From: an uncultured Gammaproteobacteria bacterium
Lineage (GTDB): Bacteria > Patescibacteriota > Microgenomatia > Levybacterales > UBA12049
Direction of reading: 5' to 3'
NCBI GenBank assembly: GCA_964637955.1
Contig: CAZWXQ010000001.1
Coordinates: 292,849-356,848 of the forward strand
DNA: 64,000 nt
Shown in pieces: positions 1,816 through 36,436 of the stretch (position 1 is the stretch's first letter; each line of letters opens with the position of its first letter). A program made the position numbers and the translations under genes. Under the pieces are notes generated by a model. The model ran no database searches. It saw only the letters and a program-made list of their open reading frames with translations, and was not told where the DNA came from.

Positions 1816-1887
1816 CGGGGTGTAGTTTAGTGGTAGAATGCGCGGCTGGGGGCCGTGTGGTCCAAGTTCGATTCTCGGCACCCCGAC
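1816..1887 (+). tRNA. tRNA-Pro (anticodon GGG)
   Basis: 72 nt cloverleaf readable by hand: acceptor CGGGGTG/CACCCCG, anticodon stem CGCGG/CCGTG with loop CTGGGGG (U33, GGG, G37), T-loop TTCGATT (T-stem with one A:C mismatch), discriminator A, no encoded CCA. Confidence 0.75.
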
Positions 1888-3953: not shown

Positions 3954-5045
3954 ATGGCCAAGTCAACAAAAACCTCAGTACCCTCAGGTGAGCAAGTAGA
4001 GCAATCCGCTAAATTAGATGCAGTTCGAATGGCTATGGAGCAAATCGAAAAGCAGTATGGTCGAGGATCTATCATGCGTATGGGCGAAAGTTCTCAAAAG
4101 TTTGACATTCAAGTTATTTCAACAGGGATACTTCCTGTAGATATCGCTCTTGGAGTTGGAGGTTTACCTCGAGGCAGAATTATTGAGATTTATGGGCCCG
4201 AAGCATCAGGAAAAACTACTCTCGCTTTATCTCTTATTGCTGAAGCTCAGAAAACAGGTGGAGTGGCAGCCTTTATAGACGCTGAGCATGCGCTTGATCC
4301 TATTTGGGCTCAAACTGTAGGAGTAAAACTTGATGAACTCCTTATTTCACAACCTGATACAGGAGAGCAAGCGCTTGAGATCGCTGAGAGTTTGATTCGT
4401 TCAGGTGGAGTAGACGTTTTGGTAATTGATTCCGTTGCAGCACTTGTGCCAAGAGCTGAAATTGAAGGAGAAATGGGAGATTCTATGATGGGTCTTCATG
4501 CAAGACTTATGTCTCAGGCTCTAAGAAAACTAACCGGTGTAATTTCCAAAAGTAAAACTGTAGTTATTTTTACGAATCAGTTAAGACAAAAAATCGGAGT
4601 AATGTTTGGAAATCCTGAAACCACTACAGGAGGATTGGCTCTTAAGTTTTATGCATCAGTTAGGCTCGATTCTAGAAAAATAGAAACATTAAAAGAAGGA
4701 GATAAGGTAATTGGGTCAAGGCATAGGATAAAGATAGTTAAGAATAAAGTATCCTCGCCTTTTAGAATTGCAGAGTATGATGTTACGCAGGATGGGATTT
4801 CTAAAACTGGTGCAATTGTAGACGTGGGAGTAGAGATGGGAATAATAAGTAAATCTGGAGCATTTTACAGATATGGTGAAGAAATGCTGGGACAGGGAAA
4901 AGAAGCCACAAAAGAATACCTTAAAGAAAATGAACAGCTTGCAAATAAGATAACTGAAGAGATAATGAAAAAGAATAAATCAGGCGGAACTCCAGTTGAA
5001 GTTGGAGTAGAGGAAGACGAGGACGAAGAAGAAATAGATCAATAA
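3954..5045 (+). CDS. recA: recombinase RecA
   Basis: 363 aa; canonical RecA sequence incl. Walker [13 protein letters not shown] and acidic C-terminal tail. Confidence 0.97.
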
Positions 5046-26695: not shown

Positions 26696-27547
26696 ATGAG
26701 TGAATTTATTAATTATTCAAATGCAGATTTTAGTGCTAGCCTAAATGATAGTTCGATTGGTCAGGTTTTTGCTGGAGAACTGAATGTTCATGCTCAGATT
26801 TCAATTGCAAATATTGAAACGCTTGGATATTGTCCAGATTTGAATCGGATAACTGAGGCTATACATAGAGAACCCGGAACTGTTTTGGATTCATCACTTG
26901 AGTCAGTAGTAAATAGTTTTATGCAAATGAAAGCAGTCACTTTAATGGATGGAGCTGAAGCTGTTGGTTATGTTAGGTATACACCTCTTTTAGATGGAGA
27001 TAAAAAAAGACAATTAGGTCTTAGGGATGATTTTCCAGATATTGACGAGACAGGAACAGCGATCATTTTACGCGAATATAGAGGACATCATTATTATCCA
27101 AGACTTCGAACTGCTCTTTTATCTTTAAGAGCACAGGATATGAAAGATGGAAAAGTTTTAATTCTAGGTACAACTAAAAGTCCAAAAATTATTGAATCGC
27201 TTGATGATTCAAATGCGTTGGGTCTGGAATTTGACGTAGTTGATTTTATGGAGGTTGAAAATGTCTCAGCTCACACTTGTGTTTGTGAAGGAGATTTTGG
27301 AAATGGATTCCAGAATGGTATAAACTGTCCAAATAGAGCTACGAATGAAGATTTGATTCAAATAGCTAGGCATGATTGGCAAGGACTCCAAAAAAGAGGT
27401 AGAATGATTGATGGGAAAATTCCCTGTACACTGTACTTATCAAACGCTCGTTTAGCTAGATCTTTGAATGATGAGGTACGAGAGCAATTTGGATCTTTAG
27501 ATAACTTGATAAAAGCGCTTAAGGATGTGGGACATTATGAAAAATAA
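26696..27547 (+). CDS. hypothetical protein (283 aa, soluble)
   Basis: Clean ORF with its own terminator upstream; no recognisable motifs; overlaps the downstream M20 peptidase start by 23 bp. Confidence 0.5.
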   Translation: MSEFINYSNADFSASLNDSSIGQVFAGELNVHAQISIANIETLGYCPDLNRITEAIHREPGTVLDSSLESVVNSFMQMKAVTLMDGAEAVGYVRYTPLLDGDKKRQLGLRDDFPDIDETGTAIILREYRGHHYYPRLRTALLSLRAQDMKDGKVLILGTTKSPKIIESLDDSNALGLEFDVVDFMEVENVSAHTCVCEGDFGNGFQNGINCPNRATNEDLIQIARHDWQGLQKRGRMIDGKIPCTLYLSNARLARSLNDEVREQFGSLDNLIKALKDVGHYEK

Positions 27548-28607
27548 AAAATTATTAGATCAATTTTTGGAGTTAGTAAAAATAGATAGTCCTACTGGGC
27601 AAGAAGATAAAATCGCTGATTATATTTTGAACTATTTTAGAGAAAGAAAAATAGGAGTTAATAAAGATCCATTCGGAAACGTTATAGCAAAAATTAGTGG
27701 TTATGGTGAGCCTTTGTTTTTGTCTGCGCATATGGACACTGTGGAGCCAGGTAGAGGAATTCAGCCGATCATAAAGAATGGAGTTATAAAAAGCTCAGGT
27801 GACACTATTCTTGGTGCTGACAACAAAGATGCATTATCATCAATACTTTCAGTAGTAGATTATTTAATTCAAGAGAAAATTGAATATCGAAGTTTGGAGC
27901 TGGTTTTTACAGTTAGCGAGGAATCTGAATGTTTAGGTGCTGTAAAGCTTGATTATAAAAAAATTAAATCTAAAAAAGGTTTTATTTTTGATGCTGCAAA
28001 GCCAATCGGAACAATTATAACTGCCTCTCCATATTATCTAAGATTTGATATTGAAATTTTAGGAAATTCTGCTCATGCATCTCGTCCTGAGATAGCAAAC
28101 AATTCAGTATTAGTTTTCGCTGATGCTATGAGGAGAATAAAGCTTGGGAAAATTGACGATAAAACAATCGCAAATATTGGAATTGTTTCTGCTGGACATG
28201 CAAGAAATACTATTCCTGGACAGATGAAATTGATAGGGGAAGTAAGAAGTTTTGAAAATGGTGTTGTCGAAAAAGTTTCAAAAAATATTGTGAGTGAATT
28301 TGATAAATCGGCAAAAAAATATGGTTCAAAAATTAAATCTGATATTGTTTTAGAGAACCCAGGGTATGAGTATAGTCAGAGTGATCCAATTATAAAGTTT
28401 GCAGAAAAAATACTCTTAAAAAATGGTGAAAAAGTATTTCTAGAAAGATATCAAGGATGTAGTGATGCTAATATTTTTATAGATAAAGGATTAAAGATTT
28501 TAAATTTTGGTAATGGAAGTAAAAATGCGCATACAATTAATGAAGAAATTTCTATAAAAAATTTGGAAAGACTTTTTAACTTAATTCTTTCATTAGTAAC
28601 TTCGTAA
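27525..28607 (+). CDS. M20-family metallopeptidase (peptidase T-like)
   Basis: LSAHMDTVEPG and GADNKDALSSIL metal-binding motifs; 360 aa. Confidence 0.8.
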   Translation: MWDIMKNKKLLDQFLELVKIDSPTGQEDKIADYILNYFRERKIGVNKDPFGNVIAKISGYGEPLFLSAHMDTVEPGRGIQPIIKNGVIKSSGDTILGADNKDALSSILSVVDYLIQEKIEYRSLELVFTVSEESECLGAVKLDYKKIKSKKGFIFDAAKPIGTIITASPYYLRFDIEILGNSAHASRPEIANNSVLVFADAMRRIKLGKIDDKTIANIGIVSAGHARNTIPGQMKLIGEVRSFENGVVEKVSKNIVSEFDKSAKKYGSKIKSDIVLENPGYEYSQSDPIIKFAEKILLKNGEKVFLERYQGCSDANIFIDKGLKILNFGNGSKNAHTINEEISIKNLERLFNLILSLVTS

Positions 28608-28622
28608 TAGTAAAATACGAAT

Positions 28623-30866
28623 ATGTTTTGGATAGATAAAATTTCAGAAGAAATAATAAAAAGTGGAAATTATAAGCCGTACTGGGTGGACGATATGAAA
28701 ACTCCAAGCGGTTTTGCTCATGTGGGGTCTCTTATGGGTCCTGTAATTCACAGCATGGTTTATAAGAGTCTCAAGGATAAAGGACAAGAAGCTAAATTTA
28801 CTTTTATAATTAATGATTTTGATCCTGCTGATGATCTTCTTCCTGAAATTCGAGGCACACATGAAGCGGAGCTTGGAAAACCGTTAAAGCTTGCAAAGTC
28901 ACCAGATCCCAAATTTGAAAGTTTTGCAGATTTATTTGGAAATGATTTTATAACTGCAATAAAAAATCTTGGAGTGGATGCGCAAATTTTATCTTCATGG
29001 GAAATGTATCACGAGGGAAAATTTGATGACGTAATAAGACTTGCTCTCGACAATGCTGAAAAAATTCAAGATATTTATCAAAGAGTTTCGGGTAGTCAAA
29101 AAAAACAATCAGGATGGCTACCTTTTCAAGTAATTTGTGAGAATTGTGGAAAGCTAGGTACTACCAAGGTATATGCTTGGGACGGTGATAGAGTTTCATA
29201 TAAATGTGAACCTGATTTAGTTGTTTGGGCAAAAGGTTGCGGACATGAAGGAAAAATTTCTCCATTTGGTGGAACTGGAAAACTTCCTTGGAAAGTTGAC
29301 TGGCCTGCTCATTGGAAGGTGATTGGAGTGACCATAGAAGGAGCTGGAAAAGACCATGCTTCAAAAGGTGGATCTTATGATATTGCGATGACAATCTGTC
29401 GCGAGGTATTTGATTTTGATCCTCCATTCAAAATGCCATATGAGTTCATCTTAATAGGAGGTAGAAAAATGTCTTCGTCTAAAGGATTAGGCTTAAAGGC
29501 TCATGATTTGGTAGATATTCTTCCACCAGAAGTAGCAAGATTTTTATATGCAAGAAATGGAATAAAATCTCAAACGAATTTTGATCCAGACGATAAAAAT
29601 GCGATCCCTGTTCTTTTTGATGATTATCAAAAAGCAGCGGAAGCATATTTTAGTAAAACAGATGAGGATTTAGGTCGTGCGTTTGAAATTTCACAAGTTG
29701 ATGAAATAAAAAGGCCACCTTCTGTGAGGTTTAGCGTGCTTGCTCAGTGGGTCCAAATGCCAAATATGGAACAGAAGATTAAGGAGGAAGATCTTGAGCA
29801 GTGGGCTAAGTATGCAAAGGTTTGGGTGGAAAGATTTGCTCCGGAAGATATGAAATTTGAAGTTAAAAAAGAATTACCTGAAAATTTAAATTTAAATGAA
29901 AAACAAAAAGAATTTCTTATAAAACTTAATGAAAAAATTGGTTCTTATAAATCCGGAGAAGATTTTCAAATTGAAATTTATGAATTAGGAAAAGAGCTTA
30001 AGCTTGATGGAAAAGAAGCATTTCAGGCAATTTATCTAAGTCTTTTAGGAAAAGATCACGGGCCAAAAGCTGGTTGGTTAATTCTTTCTTTAGATCCAGG
30101 ATTTGTAAAAAATAGATTTGAAGAAGCTTCAAAAGAATCCATAAATTCAAATAATAAATCTACTATTATAAAATTAAATAAACCAGAAATTTTTTCAATT
30201 GATGCAAATTTAGCAGAAAAATTTCCTAGTCTTTCAGTGGGAATTGCAATAATTAAAGGTGTTTCTATAAAAGAAAAAGACGAGGAGTTGGAAAAAGAAA
30301 AAGAGGAATTATTAAAATCATTTGAGAATTTGACTACAGAAGGGTTGGGGGCATTCCCAGAAACAATGTCTTACAGGAGGCTTTATAAAGAAATGGGAGT
30401 TGATTGGCATTCAAGGCGCCCTAGTCCTGAAGCATTGCTTCGTCGTGTCGCTTTAAAAAAAGGCTTGTATTCTATAAATACAGCAGTTGATGCATATAAT
30501 CTTGTTGTAATGAAAAATAGAGTTTCAGTTGGCGCATTTGATTTAGATAAAATTGAATTTCCTACGCTTTTAAGACTAGCAAAAAATGATGAAGAAATAC
30601 ATCTTCTTGGAGATGATGATTCTACAAGATATACAGAAAAAGAAATAGCATACTTTGATAAAAATGGTGGATATAATATGGATTTTAATTTTAGAGATGC
30701 TAAGAGAACTGCTGTAGGAATGGAAACTAAAAATATTTATTTAAATGTAGATGGAATTTATGATGTTACGCCAGAAAAAGTTTTAGAAGTTTTAGAAGAA
30801 GCAGTAGAAAAAATATTAAAATATTGTGGTGGAGAAATAGTATTTCTCGGAGTAGAGAAAGCATGA
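28623..30866 (+). CDS. lysS: class I lysyl-tRNA synthetase with C-terminal B3/4-like domain
   Basis: N-terminal about 520 aa aligns by eye with archaeal class I LysRS (PSGFAHVGS, WKVDWPAHW, GAGKDHASKGGSYD, KMSSSKG). C-terminal about 220 aa resembles the B3/4 tRNA-binding/editing fold. Confidence 0.85.
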   Translation: MFWIDKISEEIIKSGNYKPYWVDDMKTPSGFAHVGSLMGPVIHSMVYKSLKDKGQEAKFTFIINDFDPADDLLPEIRGTHEAELGKPLKLAKSPDPKFESFADLFGNDFITAIKNLGVDAQILSSWEMYHEGKFDDVIRLALDNAEKIQDIYQRVSGSQKKQSGWLPFQVICENCGKLGTTKVYAWDGDRVSYKCEPDLVVWAKGCGHEGKISPFGGTGKLPWKVDWPAHWKVIGVTIEGAGKDHASKGGSYDIAMTICREVFDFDPPFKMPYEFILIGGRKMSSSKGLGLKAHDLVDILPPEVARFLYARNGIKSQTNFDPDDKNAIPVLFDDYQKAAEAYFSKTDEDLGRAFEISQVDEIKRPPSVRFSVLAQWVQMPNMEQKIKEEDLEQWAKYAKVWVERFAPEDMKFEVKKELPENLNLNEKQKEFLIKLNEKIGSYKSGEDFQIEIYELGKELKLDGKEAFQAIYLSLLGKDHGPKAGWLILSLDPGFVKNRFEEASKESINSNNKSTIIKLNKPEIFSIDANLAEKFPSLSVGIAIIKGVSIKEKDEELEKEKEELLKSFENLTTEGLGAFPETMSYRRLYKEMGVDWHSRRPSPEALLRRVALKKGLYSINTAVDAYNLVVMKNRVSVGAFDLDKIEFPTLLRLAKNDEEIHLLGDDDSTRYTEKEIAYFDKNGGYNMDFNFRDAKRTAVGMETKNIYLNVDGIYDVTPEKVLEVLEEAVEKILKYCGGEIVFLGVEKA

Positions 30867-31429
30867 AAATAGATAAGATAGTTTTGGTAAGTGGAAATCC
30901 AGGGAAAGCTCGTGAGATTCAAAGAATTTTAGATATTCCAATTGAAACTAGAGAAATAGATCTTGAAGAAATTCAAGAGATTGATCTTGAGAAAGTAGCG
31001 CTTAATAAATTAAATCAAGCATATTCCATTGTCAAAGCTCCCGTGATGATTGATGATATTTCTCTTGAAGTTGAAGTTTGGAATAAATTTCCAGGACCTT
31101 TAATTAAATGGCTCTTGAAGGCAGGAGATGGAGACGCAAAGATTCTTCTTAAAATGCTTGGAGATGAGGAAAATAGAAATGTAAAAGCAAGGCTTGCCAT
31201 TGGATTTCATGATGGAGAAAGCCAACATGTTTTTATCGGTGAAGTTGATGGCCAAATTGCACATGATATAAAAGGAAAAAATGGATTTGGATGGGATCCA
31301 ATTTTTATTCCTAATGGTGAAAGTGAGACTTTTGCGCAGATGGATCCAGAAAAGAAAGATAGTATCTCTCACAGGGGTCGTGCACTTAAAGAATTTAGAG
31401 ATTTCCTAAAAAAGAATTACGAGGTATAA
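30863..31429 (+). CDS. rdgB: non-canonical purine NTP pyrophosphatase (RdgB/Ham1)
   Basis: VSGNPGKAREIQ, GFGWDPIF, SHRGRAL motifs; start at the ATG at 30863 overlapping the lysS stop (ATGA). Confidence 0.85.
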   Translation: MKIDKIVLVSGNPGKAREIQRILDIPIETREIDLEEIQEIDLEKVALNKLNQAYSIVKAPVMIDDISLEVEVWNKFPGPLIKWLLKAGDGDAKILLKMLGDEENRNVKARLAIGFHDGESQHVFIGEVDGQIAHDIKGKNGFGWDPIFIPNGESETFAQMDPEKKDSISHRGRALKEFRDFLKKNYEV

Positions 31430-35761: not shown

Positions 35762-36436
35762 ATGGATGATCAAGAAGTACAGAAAAACCCAGATATAGAA
35801 GGTGAAGTTATTCCTAAGAGTTTATTGCAGAATATGTCTATATATCTCTATTCAAACTCTGACTTTGATAGAGCTTTATACTTGGAGAGGAAGGCGCGGG
35901 AGTTAGGTCTTACAAAAGATGAATTGTTTGCAAGAGTTAACCAGTTCGTTAAAGACAGAATAAGATCTAAGGAAAAGGGACCTTTGCTCCATTATCATAA
36001 AACAACTCTTGATAAATTTGCAAACATTGTTCTTTCCGGTGAGCTTCTCTCGAGGCCTATATTAAAAGAAAAATATCCAGATCAACAACTGTCTCCTTCT
36101 TCGTCAAGTGATAATGTGATGATGACGCGAGACATATATAACGCTGATGGTACGCTGAGAAAGCCTGGTCTTCTACCACACGTAGCAGCTTGGGGAGAGG
36201 TAGCATTTGTTTTTTCACCTAGTGTTATGGATTTAGAAGGATATGATGCAACTGGAATGTATCCAACCGCAAGCGAAATACCTCTAAGGGAAACATTAGA
36301 TACAGTATTGGTAAGAGATGAAGTGAAATTAGCAGGTGTTAAGCAATTACTATTGGATCATGGAATTGAAGTTCCTGTAAGAACCGAGACATGGTGGACA
36401 AATAATGTATATCCACCTCACGCTAATGAATTATAA
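35762..36436 (+). CDS. hypothetical protein (224 aa)
   Basis: Clean ORF, no recognisable motifs. Confidence 0.45.
   Translation: MDDQEVQKNPDIEGEVIPKSLLQNMSIYLYSNSDFDRALYLERKARELGLTKDELFARVNQFVKDRIRSKEKGPLLHYHKTTLDKFANIVLSGELLSRPILKEKYPDQQLSPSSSSDNVMMTRDIYNADGTLRKPGLLPHVAAWGEVAFVFSPSVMDLEGYDATGMYPTASEIPLRETLDTVLVRDEVKLAGVKQLLLDHGIEVPVRTETWWTNNVYPPHANEL

Follow-up and report, generated by a model that had tools for sequence, protein, structure and literature searches.

The question addressed here is why a lysyl-tRNA synthetase (LysRS) of class I should carry at its C-terminus an additional domain related to aminoacyl-tRNA deacylases. It is raised by a gene in the window analysed, a stretch of 64,000 nucleotides from contig CAZWXQ010000001.1 (assembly GCA_964637955.1, positions 292,849 to 356,848 of the forward strand) that is deposited as an uncultured Gammaproteobacteria bacterium and placed by GTDB in the Levybacterales of the Patescibacteriota. 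The gene (28623..30866, + strand) is one complete open reading frame (ORF) of 747 amino acids (aa) plus stop codon, in which a class I LysRS is followed by a B3/B4 module resembling the free-standing deacylase CtdA. It was found exactly where an earlier reading of the DNA letters (hereafter the original prediction) had located it, and the motifs quoted there, HVGS, WKVDWPAHW, KMSSSKG and the C-terminal strings, are all present in the translation. Judging from sequence comparisons and structural models, we consider it reasonably likely that the module serves in post-transfer editing of tRNALys, as a deacylase on a tether.

The reading frame is open without a break through the linker at the junction of LysRS and module, and two further sequencing runs, each assembled independently, yielded an identical 747-aa gene flanked by the same neighbours, which excludes a mis-join. 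Of the 120 homologs that match the full-length protein best, 114 show the same two-domain architecture, with lengths of 739-785 aa. In addition, genomes were scanned, one per species, with two module motifs as patterns (one of them NMDFNFRD), which retrieved at least 181 species genomes. The best 80 of these 181 were examined at the level of the locus (76 with a class I and four with a class II LysRS), and each of the 80 has the module and a LysRS in a single ORF, short ORFs occurring only where contig ends cut the gene. Nothing was found in support of an assembly or annotation artefact uniting two separate genes, and the probability of such an artefact is negligible; an artificial joining of two ORFs, which the original prediction had named as the case that would speak against it, is contradicted both by the two other assemblies and by the architecture of the homologs.

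An alignment of the query with 119 homologs delimits core, linker and module, and the invariance of residues was judged in 84 homologs. The core (aa 1-504; 28623..30134, +) consists of a Rossmann catalytic domain (aa 2-359) followed by a helical anticodon-binding domain (aa ~360-504). It matches Pfam PF01921 (tRNA-synt_1f) at aa 2-359 with E=7e-88 and the NCBIfam equivalog TIGR00467 (lysS_arch) at aa 1-500 with 351.1 bits, the cutoff being 147.55, and the top Foldseek match of the full-length AlphaFold model was the class I LysRS of P. horikoshii (1irx_A; E=1e-38, template modelling score (TM) 0.85, 29% identity). The HIGH-type signature HVGS (aa 33-36; 28719..28730, +) contains a nearly invariant H33 and an invariant G35, the string LPWKVDWPAHWKV at aa 221-233 includes WKVDWPAHW (aa 223-231), and in the KMSKS-type loop KMSSSKG (aa 282-288; 29466..29486, +) the residues K282, M283, S286, K287 and G288 are invariant. 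By its sequence, the core is a bona fide and regular member of class I LysRS for which enzyme activity is predicted, as the original prediction had it. However, unfused relatives terminate at ...EEAS(K/A), so that the core ends at about aa 504 and not at aa 520 as first estimated. The core is like the class I LysRS of archaea and some bacteria (1irx; TIGR00467) in sequence, fold, HIGH and KMSKS variants and the helical anticodon-binding domain, but the characterised enzymes stop at ~500-520 aa without an editing domain, whereas the query has an extra ~243 aa.

The core is followed by a flexible linker of low complexity (aa 505-523; 30135..30191, +; GC 0.16), the length and sequence of which vary among homologs. 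None of its columns (0%) is conserved at ≥98%, and the confidence of the AlphaFold model, expressed as predicted local distance difference test (pLDDT), reaches its minimum, below 50, at aa 508-512. The module itself (aa 524-747, start approximate; 30192..30863, +) corresponds to a whole free-standing deacylase homolog of ~225 aa. A match to Pfam B3_4 (PF03483) at aa 584-736 (30372..30830, +) scored 78.7 bits against a gathering cutoff of 29.3 (E=5e-22) and covered profile positions 2-174 of 174. In an exhaustive search with a 243-aa query (aa 505-747) against 1.84 billion cluster representatives, 1892 matches were obtained at E<=1e-3 and 557 at E<=1e-10. Query positions 20-236 align with positions 3-220 of complete free-standing proteins of 220-240 aa, and this end-to-end alignment indicates that the appended unit is an entire CtdA-like protein and not a B3/4 core alone.

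The full-length model has a mean pLDDT of 91.1, with each body confident, and a predicted TM score (pTM) of 0.66, which indicates that the placement of one body against the other is not fixed. After 1irx, its best Foldseek matches were the CtdA structures 9f7e and 9mkl (TM 0.80-0.83 when normalised to the CtdA chains), and the beta chains of phenylalanyl-tRNA synthetase (PheRS) ranked below them. When the module was modelled by itself (pLDDT 91.4, pTM 0.89), 9f7e_A was matched with TM 0.81/0.80 over 229 columns (E=2.9e-15) and 9mkl with TM 0.81, compared with TM ~0.60 for the B3/B4 region of PheRS beta; the CtdA-specific helical insert is present. By sequence (HMMER), the closest solved relative is likewise CtdA 9f7e (E=2.5e-4, over its residues 66-210 out of 231), with E. 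coli PheT in second place; the identity between module and CtdA is just 17-18%, and the pheT model TIGR00472 yielded only 19 bits against a cutoff of 402. A PheT-type B3/4 domain was therefore rejected in favour of the CtdA type on both sequence (best match 9f7e) and fold (TM 0.81 versus ~0.60). The original prediction had assigned the last ~220 aa to the B3/4 fold and had proposed a Pfam scan of the C-terminal part and a structure prediction as checks; both agree with that assignment, and the extent is refined to ~225 aa (aa ~524-747) after a ~20-aa linker. Fold and scaffold residues place the module in Pfam B3_4 and, more widely, in the CtdA-like family. It falls outside CtdA sensu stricto (CtdA-1), because the residues of the canavanine pocket are replaced and the protein is not free-standing. 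The module may be related to CtdA-2, an uncharacterised clade of Chloroflexi, Bacillota and archaea (PMC12449066).

Conservation within the protein is highest in the module, above that of the synthetase core. Among the 114 fused homologs, 33% of the columns of the B3_4 region are invariant at ≥98%, compared with 16% in the catalytic and 9% in the anticodon-binding domain, and in pairwise comparison with the query the modules are 62-74% identical, the cores 53-75%. The invariant blocks are DWHSRRPSPEALLRRV, VDAYN, SxGAFD, LLG, NxDFNxRD..RT, NVDG and CGG.

These blocks can be read against CtdA, a canavanyl-tRNAArg deacylase (PDB 9f7e, 9mkl; Hauth et al., 2023, PMC10018355; Maldonado et al., 2025, PMC12449066). 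Its pocket is formed by N105, G116, E118, C166, Q173 and I189 (Maldonado et al., 2025, PMC12449066). N105, equivalent to N254 of PheRS, positions the catalytic water and is the sole CtdA pocket residue described there as common to the PheRS editing site, G116 is essential for the size of the pocket, and the size of C166 tunes activity and specificity; N105A, G116H/W and Q173G inactivate the enzyme, and N105 and G116 are kept in both clades, CtdA-1 as well as CtdA-2 (PMC12449066). Pocket equivalences for the module were obtained from the HMMER alignment to CtdA and a MAFFT alignment of 104 modules. The essential Asn and Gly of CtdA are retained invariantly as N626 (30498..30500, +) and G637, the latter within G637-A638-F639 (30531..30539, +), where A638 is nearly invariant and the invariant F639 replaces E118. 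The canavanine pocket of CtdA-1 (E118, C166, Q173 or E, I189) is absent and F639, N685, D692 and N708 are found instead. N685 (for C166), D687 (for R168) and D692 (for Q173) lie in NMDFNFRD (N685..D687..N689-F-R691-D692; 30675..30698, +), an acidic pocket signature of Lys type that is invariant in the 84 homologs, and N708 (30744..30746, +) takes the alignment position of I189. By these alignments, the catalytic scaffold is kept and the specificity residues are swapped for a different, equally invariant set that includes two aspartates.

To which proteins the module is attached was surveyed in the 150 best module representatives (50%-identity clusters). It was found at the C-terminus of class I LysRS in 11 complete proteins and additional fragments, and at the C-terminus of class II LysRS in 10 complete proteins that score above cutoff for TIGR00499/NF001756, one of which (P0127) has a module 55% identical to that of the query. 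N-terminal modules occur in two class II LysRS (P0185, P0206), in eight ArgRS (P0172, P0184, P0188, P0203, P0207, P0230, P0253, P0265) and in two TyrRS, with the module alone in P0241 and together with an N-terminal YbaK-type tRNA_edit domain in P0239. In the MetRS P0250, the module is inserted ahead of the C-terminal tRNA-binding domain, and 57 of the 150 representatives are free-standing module proteins. In this Rosetta-stone pattern, the modules on class II LysRS include close relatives of the query's, whereas those on ArgRS, TyrRS and MetRS are more distant from it. In four of the 80 species genomes, a class II LysRS is fused to a module 65-68% identical to the query's, and one class II LysRS fusion is from an Asgard archaeon (a Promethearchaeota metagenome-assembled genome, MAG).

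Class I and class II LysRS are non-homologous. We compared a signature of seven sites, CtdA positions 105, 116, 118, 166, 168, 173 and 189, which reads NGECRQI in CtdA, commonly NGECREV or a close variant in ArgRS fusions, and NGHTNQP in TyrRS fusions. In class I LysRS fusions it is NGFNDDN at 73 of the 76 genome loci, and the same NGFNDDN is found in class II LysRS fusions at all four genome loci and in five of the 10 representatives. The N-terminal class II LysRS fusions P0185 and P0206 have a CtdA-like NGDCAEV or NGECSEV, not the Lys type. NGFNDDN differs from CtdA at five of the seven sites and was seen on both LysRS classes and on a few free-standing close relatives, but on no other synthetase. 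Across non-homologous synthetases, the pocket signature deduced from the alignments thus follows the amino acid of the partner. In a neighbour-joining tree of modules, which is without support values and indicative only, class I and class II LysRS fusions share a single clade, in which class II forms branch deeply and also within the crown, and ArgRS-fused modules group with CtdA. Since ArgRS fusions share the signature of CtdA and CtdA acts on canavanyl-tRNAArg, the fusion partner seems to indicate the tRNA that is served, and the sequences suggest that the N-terminal modules of ArgRS are a cis-acting, canavanine-type editing domain. By the same token, the occurrence of one signature on two non-homologous LysRS suggests that the module is tied to lysine or tRNALys and not to the structure of either synthetase. 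A free-standing gene with unrelated neighbours encodes a 229-aa protein (P0126) that is 56% identical and bears NGFNDDN, a parallel to the cis/trans pairs of AlaX and YbaK/INS.

Some of these proteins have further peculiarities. The ArgRS P0172 appears to bear two B3_4 stretches, P0148 (1072 aa) combines a class II LysRS, a tRNA_bind domain, the module and an HD domain, and the class II LysRS fusions P0133 and P0134, one of them from Promethearchaeota, have ~160-210 aa after the module without a Pfam match.

The named fused homologs are from Levy-, Gottesman- or Parcubacteria or the 'Patescibacteria group', and every one of them is annotated as a plain lysine--tRNA ligase. The best 80 genomes are mostly Levy-, Davies-, Gottesman- and Roizmanbacteria, and more divergent class I fusions were found in Anaerolineae and Aggregatilineales. 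With 114 of the 120 homologs and 181 genomes, the architecture is common in these lineages: it is the usual form among the LysRS homologs obtained from Microgenomates-type Patescibacteria, although absent from textbooks. The original prediction was therefore right in calling a LysRS-B3/4 fusion non-textbook, but the fusion is not rare. Many records with the gene are titled 'uncultured Gammaproteobacteria', 'Lysobacterales', 'Sulfotelmatobacter', 'Methylomirabilota' or 'Eisenbacteria' (L004, L010, L013, L014, L016, L019, L021, L025, L053, L058 and others). These off-lineage MAG titles probably reflect mislabelled or contaminated bins and not a truly wide distribution.

Six of the 120 best homologs are LysRS of 504-505 aa without the module, and the unfused cores are the nearest to the query (76-86% identity versus 75.6% for the best fused homolog). 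The presence of the module is thus polymorphic among close relatives. When the cores are compared by neighbour joining, the query falls within an otherwise unfused clade (27 of 30 bootstraps), which implies repeated loss or loss followed by regain; the module was either lost at least four times, or lost once and regained. The nearest relative (P0027, locus L086) has an 86% identical core and lacks an in-frame segment of exactly 729 nt (243 codons), which in a global DNA alignment corresponds to 30131..30859 (+) of the window. The indel site lies at L086:2826/2827, and its flanks are 82% (core) and 73% (Ham1) identical. The gene for a Ham1/RdgB-type nucleoside triphosphate pyrophosphatase (30863..31429, +) follows LysRS directly, its ATG overlapping the LysRS stop (ATGA), and the same stop/start overlap exists at the unfused loci L001 and L086. 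Gene order in L086 is as in the query (M20 peptidase - LysRS - Ham1), and the unfused L001 shares the longer synteny SBP-GreA-aminotransferase-epimerase-...-LysRS-Ham1-SerRS-SecA. Since a core of 86% identity does without it, aminoacylation by this core can dispense with the module, which fits an accessory quality-control role, and near-identical loci with and without the module represent a natural, ready-made control. A recent foreign origin of the module was rejected, as its GC content, GC content at third codon positions (GC3) and codon usage are like those of neighbouring genes.

Taken as an editing deacylase, the module would act after LysRS or another enzyme has attached a non-cognate amino acid to tRNALys. 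The mischarged tRNALys would reach the pocket of the module with its 3' end, either by translocation of the CCA end or by release and recapture as in free-standing CtdA, and the ester bond would be hydrolysed, while Lys-tRNALys would be spared. N626 would position the water, G637 would hold the pocket open, and F639, N685, D687, D692 and N708, in place of E118, C166, R168, Q173 and I189, would admit the substrate and keep lysine out. The two pocket aspartates suggest a positively charged side chain, and the amino acid that is cleared is probably cationic. By analogy, the double-sieve logic would favour a substrate that is shorter than lysine or isosteric with it (ornithine, 2,4-diaminobutyrate or thialysine, for instance), but this is a low-confidence guess. 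Editing is favoured because homology and fold match CtdA, an experimentally proven aminoacyl-tRNA deacylase, and because N626 and G637 are invariant in what is the most conserved part of the protein. The disordered, variable linker is consistent with a tethered, semi-autonomous deacylase.

Alternatively, the module could be a non-catalytic appendage for tRNA binding or handling, which raises the affinity of LysRS for tRNALys or grips the acceptor end. Such a role would suit the requirement of class I LysRS for tRNA even in amino-acid activation (PMC7373986), the contact of B3/4-fold domains with the tRNA acceptor end in PheRS, and the presence of other accessory tRNA-binding domains in some relatives, e.g. 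tRNA_bind in P0148. We nevertheless regard it as unlikely, because invariance is centred on the amino-acid pocket positions of CtdA and PheRS, because the signature varies with the amino acid of the partner and is the same on two structurally unrelated LysRS classes, and because 86% identical cores do without the module and a free-standing form (P0126) exists. The original prediction had left open whether the domain serves tRNA binding or editing; both remain in line with the data, and editing is better backed than mere binding by pocket conservation, by the signature that follows the partner and by dispensability in the closest relatives. It is very unlikely that the module is a deacylase with a target other than tRNALys, be it canavanyl- or another analogue-tRNAArg or a general activity tethered to an abundant translation enzyme. 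The sole characterised relatives do act on tRNAArg, and P0185 and P0206 bear a CtdA-like signature on class II LysRS, but NGFNDDN of the crown clade, confined to LysRS among synthetases, departs from CtdA at most of the seven sites, and it is ArgRS that bears the CtdA-type signature.

The replacement of four of the six published CtdA pocket residues could also mean that catalysis has been lost and that the module has become an amino-acid sensor, a regulator or an oligomerisation domain. As CtdA is dimeric (PMC12449066), the module could dimerise the normally monomeric class I LysRS. We consider this quite unlikely, since the retained residues are the water-positioning Asn and the pocket Gly, both essential in CtdA, and since the existence of a free-standing form speaks for autonomous activity. 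Moreover, class II LysRS is a dimer and, although already dimeric, has the same module.

Several points weigh against the assignment of an editing function. As four of the six pocket residues published for CtdA are replaced (at the level of the signature, five of seven sites), the catalytic competence of this clade of modules can only be presumed. We infer hydrolytic activity, the tRNALys target and the identity of the substrate from homology, conservation and fusion pattern. Ornithine becomes a less plausible guess in view of a report that, with the amino acid at millimolar concentration, class II LysRS forms Orn-tRNALys and class I does not (PMC8001834). AlphaFold leaves the relative placement of the two bodies unfixed (pTM 0.66), all trees are neighbour-joining only, and the repeated loss in close relatives could equally fit a marginal or conditional role of the module. 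A search for active-site residues of the core that covary with the module revealed only positions 76 and 92 as separating fused from unfused proteins; they carry no functional signal, because they are lineage-specific and the query has the unfused state at both.

To our knowledge, the B3/B4-CtdA fold has until now been described only in PheRS and in a free-standing protein, ArgRS is regarded as being without any editing, and we know of no hydrolytic proofreading of lysine-tRNA by LysRS. Compared with CtdA, the module has the same overall fold with helical insert, the whole-protein length, the Asn (N105 to N626) and Gly (G116 to G637), and the motifs R-P-S-x-E-A-L-x-R-R and (W/F)N(W/F)R(Q/D). 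It differs in being fused to LysRS, whereas CtdA is free-standing and linked to ArgRS/tRNAArg, and in the substitutions E118 to F, C166 to N, R168 to D, Q173 to D and I189 to N at an identity of 17-18%. With the B3/B4 domain of PheRS beta (PheT; 3pco, 6oz5, 1pys), it shares the core fold, PF03483, Asn N254 and an 'AFD' motif after the pocket position. That domain is a cis-acting post-transfer editing domain of a synthetase, as proposed here for the module. However, topology and inserts differ (TM ~0.60), H265 of PheRS is replaced by Gly and R244 by Tyr, and of the editing site only N254 is shared, the E. coli residues R244, H265, G318 and E334 not being kept. Furthermore, the module is terminal and tethered to a class I monomeric enzyme for another amino acid, whereas the PheT domain is embedded among B1-B8 of a class II (alpha-beta)2 enzyme. 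AlaX with the editing domain of AlaRS/ThrRS, and YbaK/ProXp with the INS domain of ProRS, are similar cases in which one deacylase fold exists both free-standing and fused to synthetases, with a specificity that varies by subfamily, but their folds are unrelated to that of the module.

A review describes LysRS editing only as pre-transfer cyclisation by the class II enzyme, and Ser/Thr-tRNALys as trans-edited by ProXp-ST factors (PMC7373986). No description of a LysRS or ArgRS fused to a B3/B4 or CtdA domain was found in full-text literature searches or in selective reading of the CtdA papers, AARS Online and a 2020 review of aminoacyl-tRNA synthetases. A phylogenetic survey of CtdA from 2025 kept only proteins of 180-260 residues from reference proteomes (PMC12449066), a filter that would exclude every fusion. 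As the sequences are public and have precomputed Pfam hits, the architecture is visible in databases and, as far as found, undescribed. If correct, a LysRS with its own hydrolytic editing domain would be a new entry among the mechanisms of translational quality control, some uncultivated bacteria would proofread lysine-tRNA, and the CtdA family, which was found in 2023 and so far comprises one substrate and free-standing forms only, would extend to cis-acting forms and new specificities. An editing-type domain on both LysRS classes and on ArgRS may surprise specialists, although its function is deduced here from sequence and the architecture is common in existing data. The same module and pocket on two non-homologous LysRS make the hypothesis unusually well constrained and directly testable, and it could reveal lysine-like metabolites that threaten organisms such as bacteria of the candidate phyla radiation (CPR), which are scavengers of amino acids. 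As a tentative generalisation, which could well prove wrong, CtdA-type deacylases may have been recruited repeatedly as post-transfer editing domains by LysRS of both classes, ArgRS, TyrRS and MetRS, for which textbooks give no such domain, with the signature as a specificity code; the widespread and highly conserved NGFNDDN of Patescibacteria, Anaerolineae and Asgard archaea would in that case hint at a natural lysine antimetabolite that threatens translation in them, and the code would provide a functional prediction for free-standing CtdA-2-like proteins.

Upstream of LysRS, at a distance of 16 bp, lies a gene for a PepT-like M20 metallopeptidase (27525..28607, +), which matches TIGR01883 with 257 bits, just under the cutoff of 274. 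A functional link between the two was rejected, since the peptidase gene is also beside the unfused LysRS in L086, is absent from L001 and is not recurrently adjacent elsewhere. The start of the peptidase gene is overlapped by 23 nt by an ORF of 283 aa (26696..27547, +) without a Pfam or NCBIfam match, and at this position L001 has two unannotated ORFs of 78 and 223 aa. Downstream, an ORF of 224 aa (35762..36436, +) is likewise without a Pfam match. No second LysRS or second copy of the module was detected within the 64-kb window, and neither a regulatory RNA (e.g. a T-box) nor an rRNA or tRNALys was detected there by Rfam and ARAGORN, the sole RNA gene being a tRNA-Pro(GGG) at 1816..1887 (+). 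Between positions 4001 and 10000 of the window, the GC content is 0.37-0.39, compared with ~0.30 in the flanks, and the AT skew is positive, unlike in the adjoining 10-22 kb.

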